DNA of 64,000 bases from a bacterium (GCA_021784815.1 JAJYHK010000011.1:10954-74953), one strand, 5' to 3'; positions 33,504 through 64,000 are shown, numbered from the stretch's first letter. Notes: generated by a model not told the origin, from the sequence alone. Translations and numbers: made by a program.

Positions 33504-33575
33504 TGCCCCGGCCAGGATTCGAACCCAGAATAGCTGTTCCGAAGACAGCCGTGATATCCATTTCACCACCGGGGC
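33504..33575 (-). tRNA. tRNA-Arg (anticodon UCG)
   Basis: Manual fold: acceptor gccccgg/ccggggc, D-stem gtga/tcac, anticodon stem gctgt/acagc, loop ctTCGga (anticodon tcg), T-loop ttcgaat. Confidence 0.75.
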
Positions 33576-51087: not shown

Positions 51088-53550
51088 ATGAAGCGCTTCC
51101 TCGTGATCCTCGGCATCGGCCTCTCACTCTCGGTAGCGGGGGCTGTGCTCACCTCTCACCCGCGACAGGCCCTCGCAGCAAATCCGGGAAGTAGCTCTGA
51201 CCCCGCCCCCTCGTCATCTTCACAACCGACCAATACTCAGGCTGCTGCCCAGGCTGCGGCGGCACAGAAAGCAACGCCGTCGGGGTTGGCACAGGCCCAT
51301 GCATGCAGTGTGACCGACATAAGCTGTGACTTCGGCTGGATCATGACCGAAATCGCGAGCCTCTTCGCTTGGTTTCTCGGCGTCGCGATGCTCGTACTCG
51401 ACACGGCGGTGTATTACACGGTCGTGAAGATGGGGGACATTTTAGGACAGGCGAACGGCATTACGGCGATACCGCTCATTTGGCGCATTATGCGCGACCT
51501 CGGCAACGTGGCGCTCCTCTTTGGGTTCATTGCGATCGGGCTTGAGACCGTGCTCGGGATCGATTTTTATGGCGGCGGCACGAAGCTCCTGCCTACGCTC
51601 ATCATTGTGGCGGTTCTCCTGAACTTTTCGCTTTTTTTTGCGAGCGCAATCGTCGACGCGAGTAATCTCTTTGCGACCGAATTCTATACGCAGATCAATG
51701 ACGGAAACATTCCGGCGCCCCCGCAATGGAATAACTTTTCAGCAGCCGTGGGGGAGGAGGGCGTCTCAAATGCGATTATGAGTCAGCTTGGTCTGCAAAC
51801 GCTCTACACGGGCGCCCTCGACTACGGCACGACGGCAAGCTCGAAAGTCATGACTCTCTTTACAGGGGCGGACATGATGTACATCGGCTTCCTAAGCATT
51901 TTTCTCTTCATCGTCGCCTCGTTTGTCATGCTCGCGCTTGCGTTTACGCTCGTGGCGCGGTTCGTCGTTCTCATTGTTTTGCTCGTCGTCTCGCCCATCG
52001 GTGTGGCTGCATATGCAGTTCCGCAACTTAAGGCGCGAGGGAAGCAATGGTGGGACATGCTCATCGCGCAATCCATAACCGCCCCGGTACTCCTTCTACT
52101 TCTTTATGTGGCGCTCCGGGTGATCACGGACGCGCATTTTATTACGAGCTTCATGTCCCCAGGGAGCGGGGGTGTAGCAGCGCAGACCGCAACAACCGTC
52201 TGGACGGGTGCGATTAATGGTGGGAATCTCGAGGGATTTGGCGGTATGTTGCTCTCCTTTATCGTCGCCATGGGCCTACTCTTTGCGGTCGTCCAGGCCT
52301 CTAAGTCTATGTCGGCCTGGGGCGCAGGCGCAGCGACGAAACTCGCTGGTATGGCCTCCTTCGGTGCCATCTCGCTCGGTATGCGCAGCACGGTCGGGTA
52401 TGCCGGCACGCGGCTGAATACTAAGCGCATGCAGGCACGCGCTGCAGGGACTGGATTTGGGGCTGGGGTCGCACGTACTGGCGTGCTGATGGGTAAATAC
52501 CTCGGTACGAGCACCTTCGATATACGTAACGCGCCGGGGTCGAAAATGGTTCAAAAGGAGTTCGGCATCGATGCGGGCAAGGGCGCCACGCTTACCGCGC
52601 AAAAGGTAGTGGACAACAAGGTGGGCAAGCCTTGGAATGTGGTCACAGGCTGGAAGCCAATGCAGGAAGCCAGCAAGAAGAGAATGGAGGAATACCGTTC
52701 TGCCAAACGTGACATCGACTTTGCCGACGCACAGTCAGCCATTGAGCAGGCGAAAGAAAAGCTGAAAGCAGGTGTTATTTCGCAAGCGGAATTCGACCGA
52801 GAGACCGTGACGCCAACGAAGATCATTACAGAGGGGCTCGCAAAAATGAGCACAAAACAGCTTGAAGAACTTGGAAGTATTAAGAAGGGGGTCTCTTCTC
52901 TTGTGGAGAACTTGTCTCCGCAAAAATTCGATGCGCTCATGAAGAGCGACAAGCTGACAGAGGAAGAACGCGAGAAGCTCCGCAGCGTCCGATTCGCTAA
53001 AGTTAACGAACTGGTCGAAAAAGCAAATAGGACTGGCGATCGAGCAGATGTCGCAGCTGCACAGAAAGAGATTACGAAACTGAATCAGAAGGAGATTGTT
53101 CACGCACCAAACGAGTTTCTTACGACTCAGATGGTTGCACAGGGTCTTACGAACGATCAGTATGATGCCGTTGCCAAGGATGGTGGGCTCCCTTCTCTTG
53201 AGAGAGCAAAAATCGATGAATATCGAAAGAATCGCTATGACGCGGCTGCTGCGGGTAGCACTGCGAAGTCGGTTGCCGAATCCATTCGGGCGCTCAATTG
53301 GAATCGTGATGCGATCACAAAGCTACCAGCTGGTACCCTTACAAATCACGCTGTTCTTGATGAGCTCGGCCCTGACGCTCTGAATCTCATTGATGTTGCG
53401 CGTCGAGGGAATCTTTCTCCTGTGGACCGCCAGAAACTGGGCGAGTACCTTGAAGATGTCGCTAAAAACGCAGCCGATGCCCGCCAGGCAGTCTTTGCGG
53501 CATACGTTAACACCGATACACGGGTTAAGCGCGATTTGCTCATATCATAG
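51088..53550 (+). CDS. large polytopic membrane protein, VirB6/TrbL-like (inference), with charged coiled-coil C-terminal tail
   Basis: Signal peptide, Ser/Ala-rich linker, six or more TM helices, about 330-aa hydrophilic C-terminus. Confidence 0.4.
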   Translation: MKRFLVILGIGLSLSVAGAVLTSHPRQALAANPGSSSDPAPSSSSQPTNTQAAAQAAAAQKATPSGLAQAHACSVTDISCDFGWIMTEIASLFAWFLGVAMLVLDTAVYYTVVKMGDILGQANGITAIPLIWRIMRDLGNVALLFGFIAIGLETVLGIDFYGGGTKLLPTLIIVAVLLNFSLFFASAIVDASNLFATEFYTQINDGNIPAPPQWNNFSAAVGEEGVSNAIMSQLGLQTLYTGALDYGTTASSKVMTLFTGADMMYIGFLSIFLFIVASFVMLALAFTLVARFVVLIVLLVVSPIGVAAYAVPQLKARGKQWWDMLIAQSITAPVLLLLLYVALRVITDAHFITSFMSPGSGGVAAQTATTVWTGAINGGNLEGFGGMLLSFIVAMGLLFAVVQASKSMSAWGAGAATKLAGMASFGAISLGMRSTVGYAGTRLNTKRMQARAAGTGFGAGVARTGVLMGKYLGTSTFDIRNAPGSKMVQKEFGIDAGKGATLTAQKVVDNKVGKPWNVVTGWKPMQEASKKRMEEYRSAKRDIDFADAQSAIEQAKEKLKAGVISQAEFDRETVTPTKIITEGLAKMSTKQLEELGSIKKGVSSLVENLSPQKFDALMKSDKLTEEEREKLRSVRFAKVNELVEKANRTGDRADVAAAQKEITKLNQKEIVHAPNEFLTTQMVAQGLTNDQYDAVAKDGGLPSLERAKIDEYRKNRYDAAAAGSTAKSVAESIRALNWNRDAITKLPAGTLTNHAVLDELGPDALNLIDVARRGNLSPVDRQKLGEYLEDVAKNAADARQAVFAAYVNTDTRVKRDLLIS

Positions 53551-53568: not shown

Positions 53569-54597
53569 ATGCGCCAGTATTCTGACCAAGAGGTCGAGAG
53601 TCTTGTACAGCAGTTGCCCCAACCGATTCAAGATAGTTTGACAGGACCAGATATGGCAATGAAAGTTGCTAATATCGGTTCTCGAGCAGGTCTCCACATC
53701 GACCAAATTGGCCTTCTGGCGCAGCTTAATCGCAACCTGCTGCTCGGTTTGGTACGGCCGCCTGAATTCTTGCAAGGACTACTCGAGACTGGTATTTCGC
53801 GGGAGAATGCAAATAAGGTCATTGCAGAAATAAACGAGAAGATATTTACACCGCTTCATGATGAGGTCATGGGGGCGACAAAGCGCGAACGTGAGCCAAA
53901 TACCGTTGCGCCAGCGGTTGCGGTGCCGCACTACGAAGCGACGCCCTTGCCGCCCCGGGGAATGCAGGATCAAGCGGCGCCTGCGATGCCCTTTGCGGCG
54001 CCCCAACCCGCGCCATCGGCGCCCTTGCCGCCACGGAGCGTTATGCCTGGAGCTGCCCCTACGACTCCGGCGTATGTGCCGCAAAAACTCATTCAGCTCG
54101 AGCAGATGCAAGTCCGGCGGCCTCAGGCGGCTTCCGTTCCAGCATCCATAAGCGCCTCCCCACAAACGCCGCAAACGCCGCAAATACCGCCGCCGGAATT
54201 TACTTCCTTATATACCGCCCCACAACCGATTGAGCACGTTCGGCAAGCTGAGCCGCCGGCGCCTCCGCCTAACTTGCCCGGCATCTATGGGTCTGTTCTG
54301 GTTTTTGCGCAGACCCCTCACGCCGACCCAACGCCCGCACCAGCGCCGTATGCGCCGCCTGTGCTTGAGGAGCAGTATCCGGGTGCTGCAGCGGAGCAGT
54401 CTGTTGTCCCGGTACTCCCGTCGTATATGCCGCAGCGCGCGCCAGCCAAAATGAGCGCCGCCACGCAGCGGGCTCCACTCGCGGTAACGCCGAGCGCACC
54501 CGTTCAGTCGGAGGCACTGCCGCTCACCGTGCCGCAGCCCGCGTCACCGTCTCCTTCGAACGACAGCACCGACCCATACCGCGAACCGATCGGGTAG
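53569..54597 (+). CDS. proline-rich hypothetical protein
   Basis: [12 protein letters not shown] and PAPAPY repeats. N-terminal globular domain. Confidence 0.45.
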
Positions 54598-54668
54598 TAC
54601 CTTGCCTTGCAATCCGCTTGTGGTTCCCGTATAGTGGCGCTATCCGCTCTTGCGGGTCTCATTTTCTC

Positions 54669-55079
54669 ATGGCCACTATCAATCAGCTCACCAACAAGCG
54701 CCGGCGCGACAAGATTCGCAAGACGAAAGTACTTGCGCTCACGCGCGGTTTCAACGCGCTCGAGAACCGGCCGACGTACTACGCTTCGCCGTTTAAGCGC
54801 GGCGTCTGCACCAAGGTGACCACGAAAACCCCTCGCAAACCGAACTCGGCAATCCGCAAGATTGCCCGCGTGCGCCTCACGAACGGCTATGAGGTAACTG
54901 CTTACATCCCGGGCGAGGGCCACAACCTCCAGGAACACTCGGTGGTGCTTTTGCGCGGTGGTCGCGTGAAGGACATCGGCGTCCAATATACGATCGTCCG
55001 CGGCAAGCTCGACACCGCTGGGATCGAGAAGCGCCGTCGCGGCCGCTCGCGCTATGGGGCTAAGAAGCCTAAGGCCTAG
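54669..55079 (+). CDS. rpsL: 30S ribosomal protein S12 (extended variant)
   Basis: MATINQL...[60 protein letters not shown]. Confidence 0.9.
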
Positions 55080-55081
55080 CT

Positions 55082-55543
55082 ATGCGCCGCCCCCTTAAGC
55101 ACAAACGCGTTTGGCGTCCAGACACCCGCTACCAATCGGAGGCCGTGACCCGATTCATTAACGCGGTTATGTGGGACGGAAAGAAGGATACGGCTCGCAA
55201 GATCGTCTACACGGCGTTCGACAAGATCAAAGAGGAGCACGACCCGCTTGAGACGTTTGAGTCGGCTATCCGCAACGTCTCGCCGCTCATGGAGGTGCGC
55301 TCTCGACGCGTCGGTGGGGCCAACTATCAAGTGCCCCGCGAGGTGCCGCAAAAACGCCGCCTCGCCCTCGCGTATCGGTGGATCATCACGAGCGCTCGTT
55401 CGAAGAAGGGCCGCCCGGTGGCTGAGAAGCTCGCCGAAGAGATTCTCCTCGCAAGCAAGAACGAGGGCGATGCGATCAAAAAGAAAGACGAAATGCATCG
55501 CATGGCCGAAGCCAACAAAGCATTCGCCCACTTCGCCTGGTAG
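55082..55543 (+). CDS. rpsG: 30S ribosomal protein S7
   Basis: [27 protein letters not shown]...NYQVPREV...[11 protein letters not shown]. Confidence 0.9.
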
Positions 55544-55768
55544 GAACCCAGAAGTAAACGGCAAAAAACGCTCGGAATACGGGTGTTTTTTCGCCGTTTG
55601 CGCTGCCCGCGCATGCCGCGATTCATGCAGTATGCTTGACAAAAAAACAAGGGCAGGTTAGTTGTGTAGTTGTTGCTCCGTGAGGGGGCACATGTCCTTT
55701 GTGCTCGCTAACGAAAGTAACTCCAGTCCCGCGGAATCCTCCACGGGATATCACAAGGAAGACACGCA

Positions 55769-56134
55769 ATGAGAAACTTGCTCGGAGCCGCTGCGCTCCT
55801 TGCGATCAGTCTGGCCATCACCCCGCCGCCCGCCGCCGCGGGCACGCTCGGCACGCTCTCCTCGAGCTCGCAGGCGTCCGCCAATGGCGGCACCGGCGGG
55901 TTCATGACGCCGTTCGGCTCCTGGTTCGGGCCCGGCAGCGCCGTGACCGGCGACCAGGCGTACGGAAGCGCCACGCTCCTCATGGGGCGTGGCGGCGTGA
56001 GCACCACGACCACCACGGGTACCCAGGGATACGGGTACTCCGGCCTGACCGGCTTCACCACGTTTGGCGGCATGGGCAATGCCAATGCCAATGCCAATGT
56101 GGTGCGCGGGTTCTTCGGATTCCCGCCCTTCTGA
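55769..56134 (+). CDS. small secreted Gly/Thr-rich protein (high-GC island)
   Basis: Signal peptide MRNLLGAAALLAISLAITPPPAAA, NANANA repeat. About 68-70% GC with strong GC3 bias against a host background of about 58-60%. Confidence 0.5.
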   Translation: MRNLLGAAALLAISLAITPPPAAAGTLGTLSSSSQASANGGTGGFMTPFGSWFGPGSAVTGDQAYGSATLLMGRGGVSTTTTTGTQGYGYSGLTGFTTFGGMGNANANANVVRGFFGFPPF

Positions 56135-56227
56135 TCCGCACCGGACTACGTCGACATGGGAGGCGCATCTTCGGATGCGCCTCCTTGCTCGTGTCGGCTC
56201 CCTCGGCAATACCAGGAAGGAACTCAA

Positions 56228-56914
56228 ATGAAGACGATCGTCCGATTTTTGGGCGGTTTCGTGGCGCTTGCCGCGGTAGCCGCCTTCTCGCCTGCTGTCT
56301 ACGCCGGTTCGCTGCAAGCGAACAGCGCAGCCAGCTCCGGTGCCCAGGCAGGCTCGGTGCTGGAAATGAATGCCGCCCCAGGAGTGAACTATAGCGGCGG
56401 CTACATGCTGGGCAACACCCCGGCCGTGATGCCGGGTTCCATCTACACGATGAATCCGTGCAGCAACGGCGCAGCCGTCGGCGGCGCCGGCCCGGGGATC
56501 GGTCTCACCTTCTCGTTCTCCCACGATTCGGATGAGTGCCAACTCCAGAATTGGGCCACGTTCGCCATGCGCGCGTACGCGATGACGCATGATCCGCGCG
56601 ACGAGCAATGGGCTCGCGGCATCATGTGCGCTGCGAACCCGACCGTCTTCAAGACCGCGCCGACTGGCATGTGCCAACCCGAGGCTGGCTCGAAAGCGGT
56701 CGCGGCTGCGGTACCGGCGAGCCCCGTGCCGCCGCCCGTCAAGACGGTGTCCTATCATGGCTCGGTCGTGGCGCTTGACCCCGATGCCCCCGCGTATTGC
56801 CTTCAGGGCGGCGTGGACCCGCGGATCATCCCGGCGTGCGTCGGCGCGCAAGCCGCGAGCGAAGCGTATAAGCAGCTTCATCGCGATCGCGCTGGGAGCA
56901 ACAACGCGGGCTGA
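56228..56914 (+). CDS. secreted Cys-containing hypothetical protein (high-GC island)
   Basis: RBS AGGAAGG, signal peptide MKTIVRFLGGFVALAAVAAFSPAVYA, 8 Cys. Same compositional signature as the neighbouring gene. Confidence 0.5.
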   Translation: MKTIVRFLGGFVALAAVAAFSPAVYAGSLQANSAASSGAQAGSVLEMNAAPGVNYSGGYMLGNTPAVMPGSIYTMNPCSNGAAVGGAGPGIGLTFSFSHDSDECQLQNWATFAMRAYAMTHDPRDEQWARGIMCAANPTVFKTAPTGMCQPEAGSKAVAAAVPASPVPPPVKTVSYHGSVVALDPDAPAYCLQGGVDPRIIPACVGAQAASEAYKQLHRDRAGSNNAG

Positions 56915-56987
56915 TAATCCGCGACCGTGCCTCCACCCCCCGTTTCTGGCTTTCATGCCGGAGCGGGGGTTTTCTTTTGGGAATGTA

Positions 56988-57194
56988 TTAGATACGGGTA
57001 GTAATACCAATCGTATTCTTCCACGTGAGTCGTATAAGATAAATGCCGAACGCAATCTCGGCGAGTATCACTAGGTTTGCCCCGACCATCTCTCCGCTAT
57101 TCCAGTCAAGTAGATAGTACCAGTCGCTCTGATGGAGATATACAAGAAAACCAACGACAACCACTGCAACGATTGAAAACTTCAAATATTTCAT
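56988..57194 (-). CDS. small two-TM membrane protein (transposon passenger)
   Basis: 68-aa ORF in an AT-rich context. Its stop lies within the left IR. Confidence 0.3.
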   Translation of the reverse strand: MKYLKFSIVAVVVVGFLVYLHQSDWYYLLDWNSGEMVGANLVILAEIAFGIYLIRLTWKNTIGITTRI

Positions 57195-57198
57195 AGAA

Positions 57199-57435
57199 CT
57201 ATTCTACTACCACCTCATATTCCTCTTGCGTGTAGTTCGCGTCGCAGTTCCGGCAATGGTAAATGAACTCTGTGCGGGTGATTTTACCTCCTTTGATATC
57301 GGGACCACCCGAGAACTTATCGAGGGACTTCTCTCCGCAATTCGGACATTTTAATGTTTCGCCCGTCCATTTATCCTTAAGCGGGCCAATAGGTTCTCCT
57401 GTCATTCGCGGATTATACCATTCGGCGTTAGGCAA
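57199..57435 (-). CDS. zinc-ribbon small protein (CPNC...HCRNC) (transposon passenger)
   Basis: 78 aa with two CxxC pairs. 8-nt overlap with the upstream 313-aa ORF. Confidence 0.45.
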   Translation of the reverse strand: MPNAEWYNPRMTGEPIGPLKDKWTGETLKCPNCGEKSLDKFSGGPDIKGGKITRTEFIYHCRNCDANYTQEEYEVVVE

Positions 57436-58369
57436 CTTCTCCCGTCTCTCCCGTTTCGGGAAGGTCGAGCATCCTTTGCACGCCGAACGCTCGGGCGAAG
57501 TTCTCCTCGAACTTGCGCCAGTTCGGAGAAATACGCATCAGCGTTGTAACGGAAGCCACAAGCTTATCGAGGTGCGGTATGCCGATCTCCTTCGTCAGAT
57601 AGCGGTGGTGGTGCTTCTCGTAAGTTCCCTTAGAGGTCGCCGTGCCTTCCGTGCGCTTTACGTTCTGCTTCTTTATCTCGTCAATGACGCCTTCCGGCAA
57701 CTGGTCGTAAATGAGCTTCTTCGTGAGATACCCGGCGAACTTCGGGCGCTTGCGGCGCGACTGGGCGTTATACTCCCAACCTTTCAAGCGGAACATTTCC
57801 TGATAGAACTCGTGCGGAAAGCGCATCGTCCACGGCAGGAGTTCCTTCGCGATGTATTTCGAGAGGATAAGTTGCAGTTCTTCCTTTTCACGAACCTCCT
57901 GATAGCCCGTTGCTTCGTCCACGAGAGCGATGATGCCCACGTGGGCAAGCCCGCGCATGATTATCTCGGCCATACGTGCCGTTTCGAGCGCCTTGCCTTT
58001 GAGTACGTTTGCGTCGCGGGCTTGGAGCCATACGTCGCAGATTTCAGGGAGCATGATGGCTGGAATGCCGTTGGTCCTGCCGCCTTTGCCTATATAGGGG
58101 ATAGGGCTACTTGCGCGAGCCAATAAACCCGCAGAAATAAAGGGTCTTAGCGGCTTTAGCTCCAAGAAACGCGGTAGATTTCGCGAGCCGTCCGTATCTA
58201 CGTCCTTACTGCCGCCTTCCGGCCTTGCCAGTGCCTTATTTACGCTTGCCTGCGTGAGCACTCGCGTTCCGTCCTCTAGCACGTAGCACTGGATTTCTAG
58301 GTCTCCGATATGGATGGGGTGGTCCTCCGATCCGTATGCGATTTTCTGCACCTTCTGCGGTTCGTCCAT
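57428..58369 (-). CDS. hypothetical phage-type protein (possibly P63C-domain-like; assignment uncertain) (transposon passenger)
   Basis: 313 aa with a charged C-terminal half. No catalytic motif recognised. Placed 3 nt downstream of the transposase stop. Confidence 0.45.
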   Translation of the reverse strand: MDEPQKVQKIAYGSEDHPIHIGDLEIQCYVLEDGTRVLTQASVNKALARPEGGSKDVDTDGSRNLPRFLELKPLRPFISAGLLARASSPIPYIGKGGRTNGIPAIMLPEICDVWLQARDANVLKGKALETARMAEIIMRGLAHVGIIALVDEATGYQEVREKEELQLILSKYIAKELLPWTMRFPHEFYQEMFRLKGWEYNAQSRRKRPKFAGYLTKKLIYDQLPEGVIDEIKKQNVKRTEGTATSKGTYEKHHHRYLTKEIGIPHLDKLVASVTTLMRISPNWRKFEENFARAFGVQRMLDLPETGETGEVA

Positions 58370-58371
58370 GG

Positions 58372-59238
58372 TTATGCGGTTATTGCGTTTAATATCAGCG
58401 TCTCGAACGCCGCGCCAGCGTCTCTCCGGTTATACCGGAAGCAGAACTCATTGATGTAGGCGTTCAAGTGCTTGTCGCTGATGTGATGGTATTGCCCGTA
58501 AATGCCTCGCTTCAGGAGCGCCCAAAAACCTTCGATGGTATTCGTGTGCGCATTGGCGTCCACATAGTTACCCTTACTGTGTCGAACGATGGAGTGCTTG
58601 TAGTCCTTTTTGCTCGATATGCCGTAGTAGCCGCCCCATTCGTCCGTCATGATGTGCGAGCCATCCTTCACGTTCTCCTTGATGAGCGTGTGGAGGGTTC
58701 TCATGTCCGTGCCCGAAATCTTCCGCGCCTTCACTTTACCGCCCCGTTGGAGCAAGCCCATGACGGCGGTCTTGCCGACAGCGCCCCTACCGAGGTTAGC
58801 CCGCTTCGACTTGTGCTTGTTCTTCTCCTTTCCGCCGATATATGTCTCATCGGCTTCCACGATGCCTTCGAGGAGATCGCCTTGGTCTCTCATGGCCTTT
58901 CGTATTCTCATGAGCATGAGCCAAGCCGTGTTCTTATTCACTTCGATGTCCCGTGCGAGTTGTCGGGCGCTGATACCTTTCTTGGCGTTCAATACGAGCG
59001 CGATGGCAAGAAACCACTTTTGGAGGTCTACCTTACTCTTATGGAAAATCGTTTGAACCGTCCCGCTAAAGGAAGTGTTGCAGGAGTTGCAGTGATATCT
59101 GCTCTCCTTCGGAGCCGGGGTAACTCTCACCGACGAGCAGTATGGGCACTTCGGCTTACCGTTCCATCGCACCACCTCGATGTGCTCTCTGCAGTCCTCT
59201 TGTGTCGGGAACCTCTTATATAGTTGGATAATATTCAT
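58372..59238 (-). CDS. IS1595 family transposase (N-terminal zinc ribbon plus DDE domain)
   Basis: CPYCSS...CNSC zinc ribbon; TDEWGGY...NTIEGFWALLKRGIYGQYHHISDKHLNAYINEFCFRYNRR signature. Confidence 0.9.
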   Translation of the reverse strand: MNIIQLYKRFPTQEDCREHIEVVRWNGKPKCPYCSSVRVTPAPKESRYHCNSCNTSFSGTVQTIFHKSKVDLQKWFLAIALVLNAKKGISARQLARDIEVNKNTAWLMLMRIRKAMRDQGDLLEGIVEADETYIGGKEKNKHKSKRANLGRGAVGKTAVMGLLQRGGKVKARKISGTDMRTLHTLIKENVKDGSHIMTDEWGGYYGISSKKDYKHSIVRHSKGNYVDANAHTNTIEGFWALLKRGIYGQYHHISDKHLNAYINEFCFRYNRRDAGAAFETLILNAITA

Positions 59239-59391
59239 GGTGTTTTACGTCTCTACCTTTATGTAAGGCAGTATAGCACCCCGAAAAAGGTCAACCCCCT
59301 GCTCGCGCCGGGGGCTGTGGATAACCTCTACCTATAACTAATACATTCCCTTTCTTTTGTGTGGCGGAGCGGCAGTTCTCTGACAAATCGT

Positions 59392-59679
59392 CTACGTGTT
59401 CTCCGGCTCGGCGAGCAGGACGCGCCTGCGTTCCTCGTACTCCTCCTTACCGATTTCCCCCTTGGCGAAACGCTCGTTCAAAATCTCAAGTGCTGAAGAG
59501 GTACCGTCGAGGTAGCGGTGCCAGTGGCAGCGGCCGTGCCGCCGGCCGAAGACGAGGCGGAGCAGCCATACGAGTGCCACGACGAGCACGATCGCCCAAA
59601 AGACGTTCCAGAGGACTTCCAATATGCCAAAACCGCCGCCCCAGCCCATGCCCGATCCGTACCCGTAGTGATACATCAT
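59392..59679 (-). CDS. SHOCT-domain membrane protein
   Basis: TM helix plus C-terminal LEILNERFAKGEIGKEEYEERRRVL SHOCT motif. Confidence 0.6.
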   Translation of the reverse strand: MMYHYGYGSGMGWGGGFGILEVLWNVFWAIVLVVALVWLLRLVFGRRHGRCHWHRYLDGTSSALEILNERFAKGEIGKEEYEERRRVLLAEPENT

Positions 59680-59878
59680 ATTACGATTTACGATATACCC
59701 CCATTATAACTCTCGACCGCGGCGCTTTGTTTCCCGTGAACGCCGATGGAGAATTAAGGACGAAGGTCTTTTCTTTTGTCCTATTTTCTTGTATCGTGAG
59801 ACCAACGCTCCGGCGGGCTTTATTTTTATTTTAACCAGTAAAGAAGGAGGTAACACCGACCCTTAGTAACCACCAGTC

Positions 59879-62056
59879 ATGAAGCGAGACTATCCTCTAG
59901 AAAAAGTGCGTAACTTCGGCATCATTGCCCACATTGATGCGGGTAAGACAACCACGTCCGAGCGCATCCTCTACTACACGGGCATGAGCCATAAAATCGG
60001 CGAGGTGCACGAGGGCGCGACGGTCACCGACTGGATGGAACAGGAGCGCGAGCGCGGCATCACGATCACCGCGGCCGCCATCACCTGCTTCTGGACGCCG
60101 ACCCAAGCGCGCATGGAGGGCGGATCGGTGCAAGCCTCAATGGCACATGACGCTCAGAAACACCGCTTCAACATCATCGACACGCCGGGGCACATCGACT
60201 TCACCGCCGAGGTGCAGCGCTCCATGCGCGTCCTCGACGGCGCCATCACGGTCTTCGACGGCGTATCAGGCGTCGAGCCGCAGTCGGAGACGAACTGGCG
60301 CTATGCCGACGATGCCAATGTGCCGCGCCTGTGCTTCATCAATAAGCTCGACCGCACCGGCGCTTCCTTCGAGGACTCCTATAAGAGCATTCTCGAACGT
60401 CTCTCGCCGAAGGCGGTGCGCATGCAGATCCCGATCGGCGAGGAGAGCGCGCACGAGGGCGTTGTTGATCTGCTCACCATGAAGGCGTACCGCTTCGAAG
60501 GCGCCATGGGCGACCAGGTGATTGAGGGCGAGGTGCCTGCGGATCTCGTCGACACCGCGAAGAAGTACCGCGGCGAGCTCATCGAGCGCATCGTCGAGAA
60601 TGACGAGGCGGCGATGAACGCATACCTCGAGGGCAACGAGCCCCCTCTCGAGGAACTCAAAAAGCTTTTGCGCAAAGCGGTGATCGCCAACGAAGTCTTC
60701 CCGGTGTATTGCGGCAGCGCGCTCAAGAACAAGGGCGTGCAGCTCATACTCGACGCCGTGGTCGACTACCTCCCGAGCCCGCTCGATGTGCCGCCGGTGA
60801 CCGGAATCAATCCGAAGACGGGCGAGGAAATCATGCGCCGCGCGTCCGATGACGAACCGTTCTGCGCGCTCGCCTTCAAGCTCCAGACCGATCCGTTCGT
60901 CGGCTCGCTCACGTTCTTCCGCGTGTACTCGGGCAGCATCGCGGCCGGGTCCTACGTGTACAACTCGACCACGGGCAACAAAGAGCGCATTGGCCGCATC
61001 GTGCGGCTCCAGGCTGACAAGCGCGAAGAAGTCGAGCAGGTTTTCGCAGGTGAAATCGCCGCCGCCGTGGGCCTTAAGGACACCAAGACCTCGCACACGC
61101 TCTGCGACGAGGCGAACCCGATCGTGCTCGAGGAAATCCACTTCCCGGAACCGGTCGTGTCGGTCCGCATCGAGCCGAAGACCAAGGCCGACCAGGAGAA
61201 GATGGGCATTGCGCTCAGGAAGCTTGCGGATGAAGACCCGACCTTCCGGGTGTCCTCCGACGAAGAAACGGGCGAAACAATCATCTCGGGCATGGGCGAG
61301 CTTCATCTTGAGATTCTCGTCGACCGCATGAAGCGCGAGTTTAACGTCGTTGCCGATACGGGTGCGCCGCAGGTGGCGTACCGCGAAACGATCCTCGGCA
61401 ATGCCGACGTCGAAGGCAAGTACATCAAGCAGACCGGCGGCCGCGGCCAGTACGGGCACGTCAAGCTCAAGATCAAGAAGCTCGAGCCGTTGCCGGAAGG
61501 CGAGGACGTCAAGATTGCGAAAAACGTGACGCGCGAGGACCACTTCGAGTTCATTAACAACATAAAAGGAGGCGTCATTCCGCAGGAGTACATCCCGGCG
61601 GTGGAGAAAGGCATCCGCGAGGCGATGGCGCGCGGCGTGCTCGCCGGCTTCCCGATGGTCGATATCTCAGTCGATTTGTACGACGGCTCGTATCACGACG
61701 TGGACTCCTCCGAAGTCGCCTACAAGATCGCAGCCTCGATGGCCTTCCAGGATGGCGTCCAGAAATCGAAACCGGTCTTGCTTGAGCCGATCATGAAGGT
61801 GGAGGTGACCGTGCCGGAGCAGTTCATGGGCGACATTACCGGCAACCTCTCCGGGAAGCGCGGCGCGATCGAGGGCATGGATGATCGCGGCATGAGCAAG
61901 GTCATCCGCGCCAAGGTGCCGCTCAAGGAAATGTTCGGCTACACAACGACCCTGCGAAGCATGACCGAAGGCCGCGGCGCCATGATGATGGAGTTCGACC
62001 ACTATGATGTCGTGCCGACGAACGTGGCGCAGGACATTATCACTGCGCGCAAGTAG
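59879..62056 (+). CDS. fusA: translation elongation factor G
   Basis: [21 protein letters not shown] and full EF-G domains II-V; 725 aa. Confidence 0.95.
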
Positions 62057-62195: not shown

Positions 62196-63419
62196 ATGCA
62201 CCGACTTACCCTTACACTTGCGGCCCTTGTATTTGCGGCGGCGGGCGCGGTTGCGCTCGCGGCTCCGGCGCAAGCAGCATCGCTTACCTCGGATCAAGTC
62301 CAGAGCATCGTCATGCTCCTGCAATCGTTCGGCGTCAACAGCTCGACCGTCACGAATGTGCGCAACGTACTCATCGGGGCTCCGATTATGCCGACTGCCG
62401 CAACGAGCACCGTAGCCGTTTCGACGAGCTCGACCGGCGTCGCCTGCCCAACCTTTTCCGAAGATCTCTATCGCGGCCGCTCCGACAAGCACACGGAGGA
62501 CGAAGTCTCGATGCTGCAGCGTTTCCTTGCGCGTGCATCGAGCAGCGCGTATGCAGCCGGCGCGACCGGATACTTTGGCGCCGAAACCGAGGCTGGCGTG
62601 AAGGCGTGGCAGGCGGCGCACGGTGTCCCAGCAACCGGCTTTGTGGGCCCCTTAACCCGCGCCGCTATCGCGCACGCCTGCAACCCGTCGCGCCACGACG
62701 ACCATGTACCAAGCGCCTACCGCGCCGGCATCTACCAGAATCAGGTGAACCTCTCGGCACAGCCGATGAGCGGCACGGCGCCACTTACGGTCGCCTTCTC
62801 GGCTACGGGCGCGAGCAGCACGCAGAAGTACATTCTCACCTACGGCGACGGCGCGGTTAGCGGCGCCTTCTCGGGTACGAGCACCGTCTCGCACACCTAC
62901 GCGAAGCCGGGTGAGTACACCGCGACGCTCTCGCCCTACGTTGCCTGCATGTACAGCACCCCGCGCTGTGAAATTGCCGTCATGATGCTCGCACAGGCGC
63001 GTGTGCGCGTTACCGGCACCACGTCGCCCGCCACGAACACGCTTCCGACGATCGTCTCGCTTTCGCCGGCGACCGGCGCGGTCGGCACGCAGGTGACCAT
63101 CGGCGGCAATGGCTTTACCCAGAACAACACGGTACTCTTCAACAACAGCGTGGCCGCGCGGGATGTTGCGGCACGGCCGGCTGTGTACAACTGTCTAATG
63201 ATTCCTGCCGGCGCGACGACCACGTCCTGCGGCAGCTACGCGCAGACGCTCACTTTCTCGGTGCCTCAGGGCATGGGGCCGTACTGCCCGGCCGGTGAAT
63301 TCTGTCCGCTCTATATGCTGCAGGTGGCACCCGGCCCCTACGCGGTTTCAGTGGTGAATGAAAACGGCGTAAGCGCGACGAGCGCCTTCACGGTTGCAAG
63401 CTCGAGCGCACAGGAGTAG
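62196..63419 (+). CDS. secreted protein with peptidoglycan-binding-like domain, PKD-like domain and Cys-rich C-terminal domain
   Basis: Signal peptide MHRLTLTLAALVFAAAGAVALAAPAQA. PG_binding_1-like LQRFLA...YFGAETEAGVKAWQAAHGVPATGFVGPLT. PKD-like PLTVAFSATG...YGDGAVSG...HTYAKPGEYT. ATG at 62196. Confidence 0.6.
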   Translation: MHRLTLTLAALVFAAAGAVALAAPAQAASLTSDQVQSIVMLLQSFGVNSSTVTNVRNVLIGAPIMPTAATSTVAVSTSSTGVACPTFSEDLYRGRSDKHTEDEVSMLQRFLARASSSAYAAGATGYFGAETEAGVKAWQAAHGVPATGFVGPLTRAAIAHACNPSRHDDHVPSAYRAGIYQNQVNLSAQPMSGTAPLTVAFSATGASSTQKYILTYGDGAVSGAFSGTSTVSHTYAKPGEYTATLSPYVACMYSTPRCEIAVMMLAQARVRVTGTTSPATNTLPTIVSLSPATGAVGTQVTIGGNGFTQNNTVLFNNSVAARDVAARPAVYNCLMIPAGATTTSCGSYAQTLTFSVPQGMGPYCPAGEFCPLYMLQVAPGPYAVSVVNENGVSATSAFTVASSSAQE

Positions 63420-63581: not shown

Positions 63582-64000
63582 CATGCTTAAAAGACTTGCG
63601 TTTTTCGGTGCGGCACTTGCGTTTGGTGCTCGGGAGTTTCCAGATTACGGGACCGACTCGGCTCTCACTTCAACTCAGGTGAACGCCATCGTTAGTATCT
63701 TGGAATCGTTTGGTGTGGCGGGCTCGACCATTGCAAATGTACAAGCTGCCCTTACGGGCTCTGCACCGCAGCCCTCAAGCAACTGCGTCGATCTCTCTCA
63801 AGACCTCACCCTCGGAGCCACTGACTCCTCTACGAACGGAGCTGTCTCGCAGCTCCAGTCCTTCCTCGAGTCCCAGGGCTACTTCACTTACCAGGGTCCC
63901 AAAGGCTACTACGGCTTCATTACCGCCCAAGCCGTGGGGCAGTACCAGATGGCACATGGCCTCGTCTCCTCTTCCGCTGATAGTGCCTACGGCATCGTTG
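63582..64000 (+). CDS. paralogous secreted PG-binding-like protein (partial, runs off window end)
   Basis: Manual translation from ATG at 63582: MLKRLAFFGAALAFGAREFPDYGTDSALTSTQVNAIVSILESFGVAGSTIANVQAALTGS...SQLQSFLESQGYFTYQGPKGYYGFITAQAVGQYQMAHGL. This parallels the N-terminus of 62196..63419. No stop before the window end. Confidence 0.45.

Follow-up and report, generated by a model that had tools for sequence, protein, structure and literature searches.

A widened rpsG-fusA junction in a Kaiserbacteria-like genome: a probable inherited spacer expansion with one recent IS1595-family insertion

Introduction

The rpsG-fusA pair is among the most conserved gene adjacencies of bacteria, and it often serves as a reference point in synteny work and when the quality of metagenome-assembled genomes is checked. 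In the bacterial str operon, the genes follow in the order rpsL, rpsG, fusA and then tuf. Here, we analyse a stretch of 64,000 nucleotides (GCA_021784815.1 JAJYHK010000011.1:10954-74953; hereafter the window, with positions counted from its first letter) whose source is a Kaiserbacteria-like member of the Patescibacteria, and in which rpsG and fusA are separated by 4,335 bp, exactly 55544-59878. This gap holds a two-gene cassette (isl1-isl2), an element of the IS1595 family of insertion sequences (IS) and a SHOCT-domain gene. We consider it quite probable that the gap consists of two layers: an inherited spacer expansion that is typical of the lineage, and one recent insertion of an IS1595-family element.

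The window resembles the known str operon in that the order rpsL-rpsG-fusA is kept, with tuf seen further downstream in the closest relative found. It differs in the terminator-like hairpins and opposite-strand genes that lie across the 4.3 kb between rpsG and fusA, in the gene for a PG_binding protein between fusA and tuf, and in that fusA seems to have a promoter of its own.

An 8-bp direct duplication of the target is a trait of the IS1595 family. The element described here shares with this family the possession of one DDE transposase that has a Zn ribbon at its N terminus (NF033547, PF12762, PF12760), short inverted repeats, 8-bp AT-rich target duplications, and the passenger genes that are present in some members. 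On the other hand, the clade to which it belongs always has a P63C gene and one or two small open reading frames (ORFs) downstream of the transposase gene, and it seems to be centred on Patescibacteria. Subgroups of the family, some of them with passenger genes, have reportedly been delineated by Siguier, Gagnevin and Chandler in 2009 and in ISfinder.

For the Gammaproteobacteria, a proposed rule holds that added DNA can be neutral only in the stretch separating the end of a transcription unit from the promoter of the following one (Brandis, Cao and Hughes 2019; PMC6735719). The likeness to our locus is that foreign or unrelated genes, mostly not mobility genes, gather in a narrow neutral space between units. 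However, the insertions in Gammaproteobacteria lie between operons (for example, between str and S10), whereas the one described here interrupts genes that normally form the str operon, and the break is found in a Patescibacteria lineage, where many species show such a break with differing cargo.

Results

Gene content of the junction

The genes and the element at the junction are as follows.

54672-55079, + strand: rpsL, ribosomal protein S12 (Pfam Ribosom_S12_S23, 3.6e-33)
55082-55543, + strand: rpsG, ribosomal protein S7 (Pfam Ribosomal_S7, 5.3e-58)
55769-56134, + strand: isl1, 121 aa, Gly/Ser/Thr-rich, with signal peptide; no Pfam, PHROG or NCBIfam match
56228-56914, + strand: isl2, 228 aa, Cys-containing, with signal peptide; uncharacterised family (phmmer)
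56971-56978, no strand: left copy of the 8-bp target-site duplication TTTCTTTT, identical to the right copy
56979-59350, - strand: IS1595-family element with passenger genes, 2,372 bp, delimited by inverted repeats and target duplication
56988-57194, - strand: predicted membrane ORF of 68 aa in the element (ORF list and gene call on contig L081)
57199-57435, - strand: Zn-ribbon ORF in the element, with a CxxC...CxxC motif
57428-58369, - strand: P63C-domain protein of 313 aa, passenger of the element (Pfam P63C, PF10546, 1.4e-28, 99.8 bits, cut-off 26.1)
58372-59238, - strand: IS1595-family DDE transposase, 288 aa (NCBIfam NF033547, 219.8 bits against a cut-off of 75)
59351-59358, no strand: right copy of the target-site duplication TTTCTTTT, 8 bp, a perfect match to the left copy
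59392-59679, - strand: SHOCT-domain small membrane protein, 95 aa (PF09851, 2.3e-9, 37.1 bits against a cut-off of 27)
59879-62056, + strand: fusA, elongation factor G (EF-G), 725 aa, five EF-G Pfam domains, full length

An earlier reading made from the sequence alone had placed the end of rpsG at 55543 and the start of fusA at 59879, and had reported a 4.3-kb interruption containing an IS1595-family transposon and a SHOCT gene; the Pfam matches and coordinates bear out all of this. The spacing between rpsL and rpsG is still 2 nt. The rpsG-fusA spacing departs from the tens of bp that the same reading took as normal, a figure that agrees with the median of 79 bp in 50 more distant genomes, comprising other Patescibacteria and other phyla. 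The + strand of the gap carries two ORFs, isl1 and isl2, both with a signal peptide and without a Pfam match, and the - strand carries the membrane ORF, the Zn-ribbon ORF, the P63C gene and the transposase gene, followed by the SHOCT gene.

A recent IS1595-family insertion

The element is bounded by terminal inverted repeats of 23 nt (56979-57001 and 59328-59350; 87% complementary), which enclose the four - strand ORFs. Together with the perfect 8-bp duplication, these repeats are the signature of transposition by an IS1595-type element. In addition to NF033547, the transposase matches the Pfam families DDE_Tnp_IS1595 (PF12762, 8.2e-43) and, at residues 11-55, Zn_ribbon_IS1595 (PF12760, 3.5e-8). 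The P63C protein matches phrog_2384, of unknown function, over its full length (4.7e-94). The Zn-ribbon ORF may start at a TTG at 57435 (78 aa) or, as in the L081 gene call, at an ATG at 57405 (68 aa), and its matches to Zn-ribbon and Lar-like families are sub-threshold only; the 68-aa membrane ORF has no family match. The GC content of the element is 52%, against 58% for the window, and its genes have a lower GC content at third codon positions (GC3) of 0.49-0.71.

The target of the element was the U-tract TTTTCTTTT (56970-56978) of a terminator-like hairpin that follows isl2, and since the target was duplicated, this hairpin keeps its U-tract after the insertion. On the other side, the insertion point lies 33 nt past the stop codon of the SHOCT gene. 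Because the U-tract is intact and no ORF or predicted signal is broken, the insertion was probably near-neutral.

Two other types of mobile DNA were considered for the gap and rejected. A composite (compound) transposon needs two flanking IS copies, whereas the window contains only one transposase gene with one pair of inverted repeats, and the cassette and the SHOCT gene lie outside these repeats. For a site-specific genomic island, the gap ORFs include no integrase, no tRNA gene lies nearby (the nearest in the 64-kb window is at 33575), no long direct repeats bracket the gap, and the GC3 is host-like.

The cassette and the SHOCT gene are shared with a relative

A search with the SHOCT protein led to the JGI contig Ga0136806_1047976 (L092, 165 kb), the closest relative found. 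Its gene order is rpsL-rpsG-h125-h240-h228-SHOCT(-)-fusA-PG_binding-tuf-rpsJ-(462 aa)-rplC-rplD. Identity to the window is 91.4% for EF-G, 94.8% for S12, 89.5% for S7, 76% for the SHOCT protein, which has the same position and orientation next to fusA, 66% for the PG_binding_1 protein between fusA and tuf, and 45-47% between isl1 and h125 (E 8.5e-14), which occupy the same position; h240 is a divergent isl2 homologue that shares the N-terminal motif. L092 does not contain the IS, and the counterpart of the IS target is a plain convergent terminator. This synteny implies that the cassette and the SHOCT gene were already located between rpsG and fusA in the common ancestor. Thus, judged by sequence comparison, this part of the gap (about 1.96 kb) is ancestral at roughly the genus level, and the isl1-isl2 cassette is fast-evolving. 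The SHOCT gene itself is divergent from fusA, has a host-like GC3 of 0.80, and encodes its SHOCT motif at the C-terminal end. Exact look-ups of the EF-G and SHOCT sequences returned no record, although an identical SHOCT cluster exists; we attribute the missing records to a quirk of gene calling or indexing.

The sequence-only reading had expected relatives with adjacent rpsG and fusA, and had regarded the whole 4.3 kb as a single composite insertion that would be refuted if relatives carried the same content as an ancestral state. The comparison goes partly against it: L092 shares the cassette and the SHOCT gene and lacks the IS. A single insertion is therefore not supported, and only 56979-59350 (2,372 bp) is demonstrably recent. 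The same reading remarked that tuf does not follow fusA. Indeed, no tuf gene is found after fusA inside the window; the arrangement is ancestral, though, and because L092 has the order fusA-PG_binding-tuf-rpsJ, tuf probably lies just beyond the window end.

The isl1-isl2 cassette had been described as a high-GC island. Its total GC content is indeed 66-69%, against 58% for the window. However, the GC3 values of isl1 and isl2 (0.86 and 0.78) are host-like, those of rpsL, rpsG, fusA and the SHOCT gene being 0.75-0.84, and the excess sits at codon position 2, because the proteins have a Gly/Ala/Pro-rich composition. The high GC content is thus an effect of amino-acid composition and not a foreign signature.

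The sequence of isl1 is identical in independent Logan and ENA contigs. A phmmer search with isl2 against 1.84 billion representatives gave 70 matches at E<=1e-3, among them the homologues P0003 (46% identity) and P0005 (35% by phmmer; 32% by BLASTP, E 6e-21). The members are found on other Patescibacteria-like contigs and in one phage-like context. The cysteines C78 and C104 are invariant in the family and two further ones nearly so, and the isl2 product is predicted to be a secreted, disulfide-containing protein. The isl2 protein has no Pfam, PHROG or NCBIfam match, a profile search against the PDB gave nothing below E 0.1, and the AlphaFold (AF2) model, with a mean confidence (pLDDT) of 73.6, had no Foldseek match in the PDB at E<=0.001. 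The phage-like context is a block with ERF, YqaJ, RusA and Lar-like genes (family member at L086:5030-5638). Another member (L084:5521-6624) has a chromosomal setting with GroES/EL, SecG and RNase J genes, and directly follows an ORF for a Gly-rich secreted protein of 134 aa, echoing the isl1-isl2 pair. We rejected homology between isl1 and this Gly-rich ORF, as there is no significant similarity and the two are alike in composition and position only.

An open junction is common in the lineage

When the species representatives of GTDB were scanned with EF-G, 80 loci were obtained, the nearest of which belong to Kaiserbacteria and unclassified Patescibacteria; the best of them has an EF-G that is 85% identical to that of the window. 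The rpsG-fusA gaps in the ten nearest species are 428, 81, 54, 545, 522, 112, 1589, 2053, 79 and 68 bp. Gaps of >500 bp were found in 16 of the 30 nearest species (EF-G at least 66% identical), a count that includes species without rpsG within the 1.3-3.2 kb of upstream sequence available, against 5 of the 50 more distant bacteria. Gaps of >1 kb were present in 12 of these 30 species. An open rpsG-fusA junction is therefore common in this Kaiserbacteria-like lineage, and the claim that insertions at this junction are rare does not apply to it, even though a gap such as that of the window is unusual among bacteria in general.

The cargo in the gaps of these GTDB species is in no case related to that of the window. 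It includes pilin-like proteins, an S8 subtilase of 2,010 aa, a GFA enzyme, a 2-oxoglutarate (2OG) oxygenase, lgt with a P-type ATPase gene, and an ORF6N gene with a reverse transcriptase gene. The last of these gaps, of 4.9 kb (L053:5072-10000), encodes an ORF6N-domain protein, a 614-aa protein without a family and, on the opposite strand, an RVT_1 reverse transcriptase. The genes fusA and tuf are often apart as well, at a median distance of 2.4 kb where tuf was found in the group with 66-75% identity.

Promoter- and terminator-like signals

The following putative signals were identified around the junction.

54607-54635, + strand: rpsL promoter-like sequence TTGCAA-N17-TATAGT, with a hairpin at 54642-54657
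55554-55601, + strand: terminator-like hairpin directly after rpsG, with a GC core between an A-tract and a U-tract
55636-55664, + strand: putative cassette promoter, TTGACA-N17-TAGTTG
55674-55690, + strand: small hairpin behind the promoter-like site of the cassette (from sequence)
56937-56969, + strand: intrinsic-terminator-like hairpin after isl2 (RNA fold, centroid stem), with the U-tract TTTTCTTTT at 56970-56978
59757-59834, + strand: putative fusA control block, conserved upstream of fusA
59757-59782, + strand: terminator-like hairpin of the fusA block
59770-59775, + strand: -35-like TTTCTT of the fusA block, N16 to the -10
59792-59797, + strand: -10-like TATCGT of the fusA block
59806-59815, + strand: small hairpin CGC-UCCG-GCG of the fusA block, about 8 nt after the -10
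59819-59834, + strand: U-rich tract of the fusA block

The region of the rpsG hairpin (55540-55640) folds at -43.4 kcal/mol (z = -4.56), and none of 200 shuffled sequences was as stable. The hairpin is also present in L092, with wobble and compensating changes as judged by eye. The putative cassette promoter has a counterpart there as well (TTGACA-N17-TATTGA), followed by the same hairpin at the same spacing.

When compared by blastn with the GTDB relatives, the 60-100 nt directly upstream of fusA are the only conserved part of the non-coding spacer; L092 additionally shares the rpsG-proximal spacer. The fusA block stays with fusA at gaps ranging from 54 bp to 2 kb, and the relatives with long gaps have the sequence TTGCTT-N16/17-TAYNNT upstream of fusA. 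Across 12 aligned genomes, little or no variation occurs in the T, A and final T of the -10 (TAnnnT), in the CGC..G of the small hairpin or in the T-run. T, A and the final T are the -10 positions that carry most weight in sigma-70 promoters. The small hairpin occurs with different stem sequences, as judged by eye, in five loci (L009, L015, L020, L024 and L029); the stem of the fusA leader hairpin is invariant in close relatives, and the distant ones were misaligned by MAFFT. A search of 54300-60200 against Rfam gave nothing even at E<=1, so no described RNA family covers the fusA leader. Taken together, the conserved promoter-like block and the terminator-like hairpin after rpsG suggest that fusA is transcribed on its own from its own promoter. 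A separate fusA promoter within 59700-59878 had been raised as a possibility from the sequence alone, and the conserved -10-like element at 59792-59797 supports it.

The three promoter-like sites (54607-54657, 55636-55690 and 59770-59834) are alike in consisting of a -35, 16-17 nt, a -10, 6-9 nt, a GC hairpin and a U-rich leader. This geometry could represent a 5' leader design typical of the lineage. In the relatives, the stretch from the U-run to the fusA ATG lacks a Shine-Dalgarno sequence. In the window, about 40 extra nt (59835-59878), missing in L092 and the other relatives, separate the U-rich leader from the fusA ATG; they include AAGGAGG at 59844-59850, which, at 28 nt before the ATG, is too far away for a normal ribosome-binding site.

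Evidence for a filled and an empty site

Two Logan contigs of the metagenome SRR13178631 are 100% identical to the window: L083, corresponding to 55462-56979, and L081, corresponding to 56950-59380. Logan contigs were presumably built with k=31. If the site were present in both a filled and an empty form, a k=31 bubble would make the left flank stop at 56979 and the IS path run from 56950 to 59380, the ends falling at these positions because both alleles have a G right after the duplication. The observed contig ends fit this expectation at all three positions. We rejected a multicopy IS as the reason for the breaks, since the flank contig would then run 30 nt into the IS, which is not the pattern seen. 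The contig ends thus point to a site that appears to be polymorphic, filled and empty, within this one metagenome.

Related IS1595-P63C elements

More than 7,800 homologues of the transposase were found at E<=1e-20, many of them on contigs of 2-3 kb, and those with a source name come from Parcubacteria or Minisyncoccia. Elements with transposases that are 69-79% identical and with the same transposase-P63C-small-ORF layout are located at unrelated loci on the contigs L088, L089, L090 and L094; the sites of related elements lie after rpoC, between def/fmt and mreB, and beside a Fic gene. The related elements are 2,179-2,395 bp long, have ends starting with GGGAATGTATTAG or GGGGATGTCCTAG, and are flanked by AT-rich target duplications of 7-8 bp (ACTACAA, AAAAAAAG, ATAATAAT, CTAAAAAA). 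The termini of the window IS are also found in L088, L089, L093 and L094, and small ORFs of 58-84 aa lie at the end that corresponds to the membrane ORF. In a scan of JGI metagenomes, the P63C gene was next to the transposase gene at 18 of 18 loci, counting those with a transposase at least 54% identical and with enough downstream sequence. Since content, ends and duplications recur at unrelated loci, we conclude from these sequences that the whole four-gene module is a mobile unit that is widespread in Patescibacteria.

In the elements of L088-L108, the P63C passenger is 30-42% identical to that of the window, the transposase 55-79% and the Zn-ribbon ORF, where detected, 54-80%. Hence, the P63C passenger either evolves much faster or is swapped between elements. 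The sister element at L088:3898-6292 (transposase 78% identical, duplication ACTACAA) lies about 1 kb downstream of rpoC on a high-GC (62%) Patescibacteria contig, so that the insertion is again intergenic and beside a core expression gene; L093 has the same insertion. No relatives of the IS were found in viral contigs, and plasmids gave only P63C stretches of approximately 180 bp at ~70% identity. A search of the literature library used here returned no paper linking IS1595 with P63C.

Discussion

The observations fit a history in which the order rpsL-rpsG-fusA-tuf was kept while the genes ceased to resemble one tight operon. The window would then contain four separate units: rpsL-rpsG; isl1-isl2; the SHOCT gene together with the IS, which follows it on the - strand; and fusA. 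Sequence comparison shows that the ancestor shared with the L092 organism already had a spacer with the isl1-isl2 cassette, equipped with a putative consensus-like TTGACA promoter and a putative terminator of its own, and the SHOCT gene on the opposite strand. As the sequence shows, the 2,372-bp IS1595-family element later entered TTTCTTTT in the U-tract of the cassette terminator, duplicating 8 bp. If fusA is transcribed alone, the spacer between the rpsG terminator and the fusA promoter is free to accept DNA: additions would disturb neither gene, which would account for the repeated expansion of the spacer in this lineage. By analogy, the picture of four units matches the rule of neutral space proposed for Gammaproteobacteria.

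Three other explanations have to be weighed against this two-layer history. That the island, the IS and the SHOCT gene arrived as one recent composite insertion into a tight junction might be argued from the ten nearest GTDB species, which lack all these genes in the gap and several of which have gaps of 54-112 bp. Yet in L092 (EF-G identity 91%) the cassette and the SHOCT gene occupy this very site and no IS is present, the duplication and inverted repeats bracket 56979-59350 only, no repeats, integrase or tRNA surround the full 4.3 kb, and the codon usage of the cassette and the SHOCT gene is host-like; we hold such an event to be very improbable. Even less credit can be given to an assembly artefact, in the form of a contig chimera or of an IS that was collapsed at a wrong position. 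It is true that misjoins at IS elements are frequent and that the sequence derives from a metagenome-assembled genome, but the rpsG-isl1-isl2 linkage and both IS junctions, the latter with 29-30 nt of unique flanking sequence on either side, are matched at 100% by independent Logan and ENA contigs, the target duplication is perfect, and the synteny with L092 extends to both sides.

A more serious competitor, though still an unlikely one, is that the operon is functionally intact, with fusA expressed mainly by read-through from the rpsL promoter and the fusA block acting as a processing or attenuation site. The short-gap relatives, in which the hairpin and T-run follow rpsG by 20-50 nt as in an attenuator within an operon, and the weak -35-like hexamer of the window are in line with this. 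Read-through, however, would have to cross three terminator-like hairpins (55554-55601, 56937-56978 and 59757-59782) and about 2.7 kb of opposite-strand genes, and it would not be expected from a -10-type TAnnnT that is invariant in 12 genomes or from the TTGCTT-N16/17-TAYNNT common to long-gap relatives. Thus, the predicted signals argue against co-transcription of rpsG and fusA.

Several points weigh against the reading of an inherited expansion with one recent IS insertion. The cassette and SHOCT gene are carried only by L092 and two similar contigs, and the next nearest species (EF-G 85%) have neither, which limits their ancestry to a narrow clade; independent acquisition at the same site is formally conceivable, and the similarity between isl2 and h240 is weak (32% over 98 aa). 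Some of the large gaps in more distant relatives, such as that of L022 with lgt and the P-type ATPase gene, may be rearrangements and not insertions. The promoters, the terminators and the separate transcription of fusA are proposed from sequence conservation; the -35-like TTTCTT is weak by E. coli standards, and the hairpin and U-run just downstream of the -10 could form an attenuator instead of a 5' stabiliser. With respect to the polymorphism, the empty allele was not directly seen, its specific unitig being only about 51 bp, and an exact search of JGI metagenomes with the 36-nt reconstructed empty site (...GGAGCGGGGGTTTTCTTTTGTGTGGCGGAGCGG...) gave no match.

It is tempting to extend the two-layer history to the lineage as a whole, and we do so tentatively, as a proposal that is less likely than not to be right. 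On this proposal, fusA of Kaiserbacteria and their relatives would be independent, with a characteristic promoter, 5' hairpin and U-rich leader devoid of a Shine-Dalgarno sequence; the spacer would be a lineage-wide cargo bay in which self-contained genes, often for secreted or surface proteins such as pilin-like proteins, subtilases and the isl1-isl2 products, are repeatedly captured and swapped; and the IS1595-P63C elements would form an undescribed clade that spans the Patescibacteria, has a fast-evolving P63C passenger and uses terminator U-tracts in spacers of this type as safe sites.

The locus is explained by known mechanisms and leaves our basic understanding unchanged. It is a concrete example of a core operon opened up for gene gain: a whole Patescibacteria lineage often breaks rpsG-fusA, apparently since fusA gained its own promoter, and such breaks should be read neither as misassemblies nor as something exceptional. 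In these reduced genomes the IS1595-P63C elements are numerous, and they could mark recent mobility and strain-level polymorphism. Both the lineage-wide opening of the str operon and this clade of elements are possibly worth a systematic look.

Other features near the junction

62196-63419, + strand: gene located between fusA and the expected tuf, encoding a secreted protein of the PG_binding type

Homologues of this gene lie downstream of fusA in L009, L011, L012 and L029, and before tuf wherever tuf was found. A second PG_binding-type paralogue (35% identical) starts near 63586 and runs to the window end (64000). Upstream of rpsL, at 51088-53550, lies the gene for a multi-pass membrane protein of 820 aa with a weak, below-cut-off match to NF045889 (ICE transmembrane family). 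It is kept at the same position in L001-L004, L006 and L092 (36-55% identity), and this conserved position indicates a stable neighbour and not mobile DNA.

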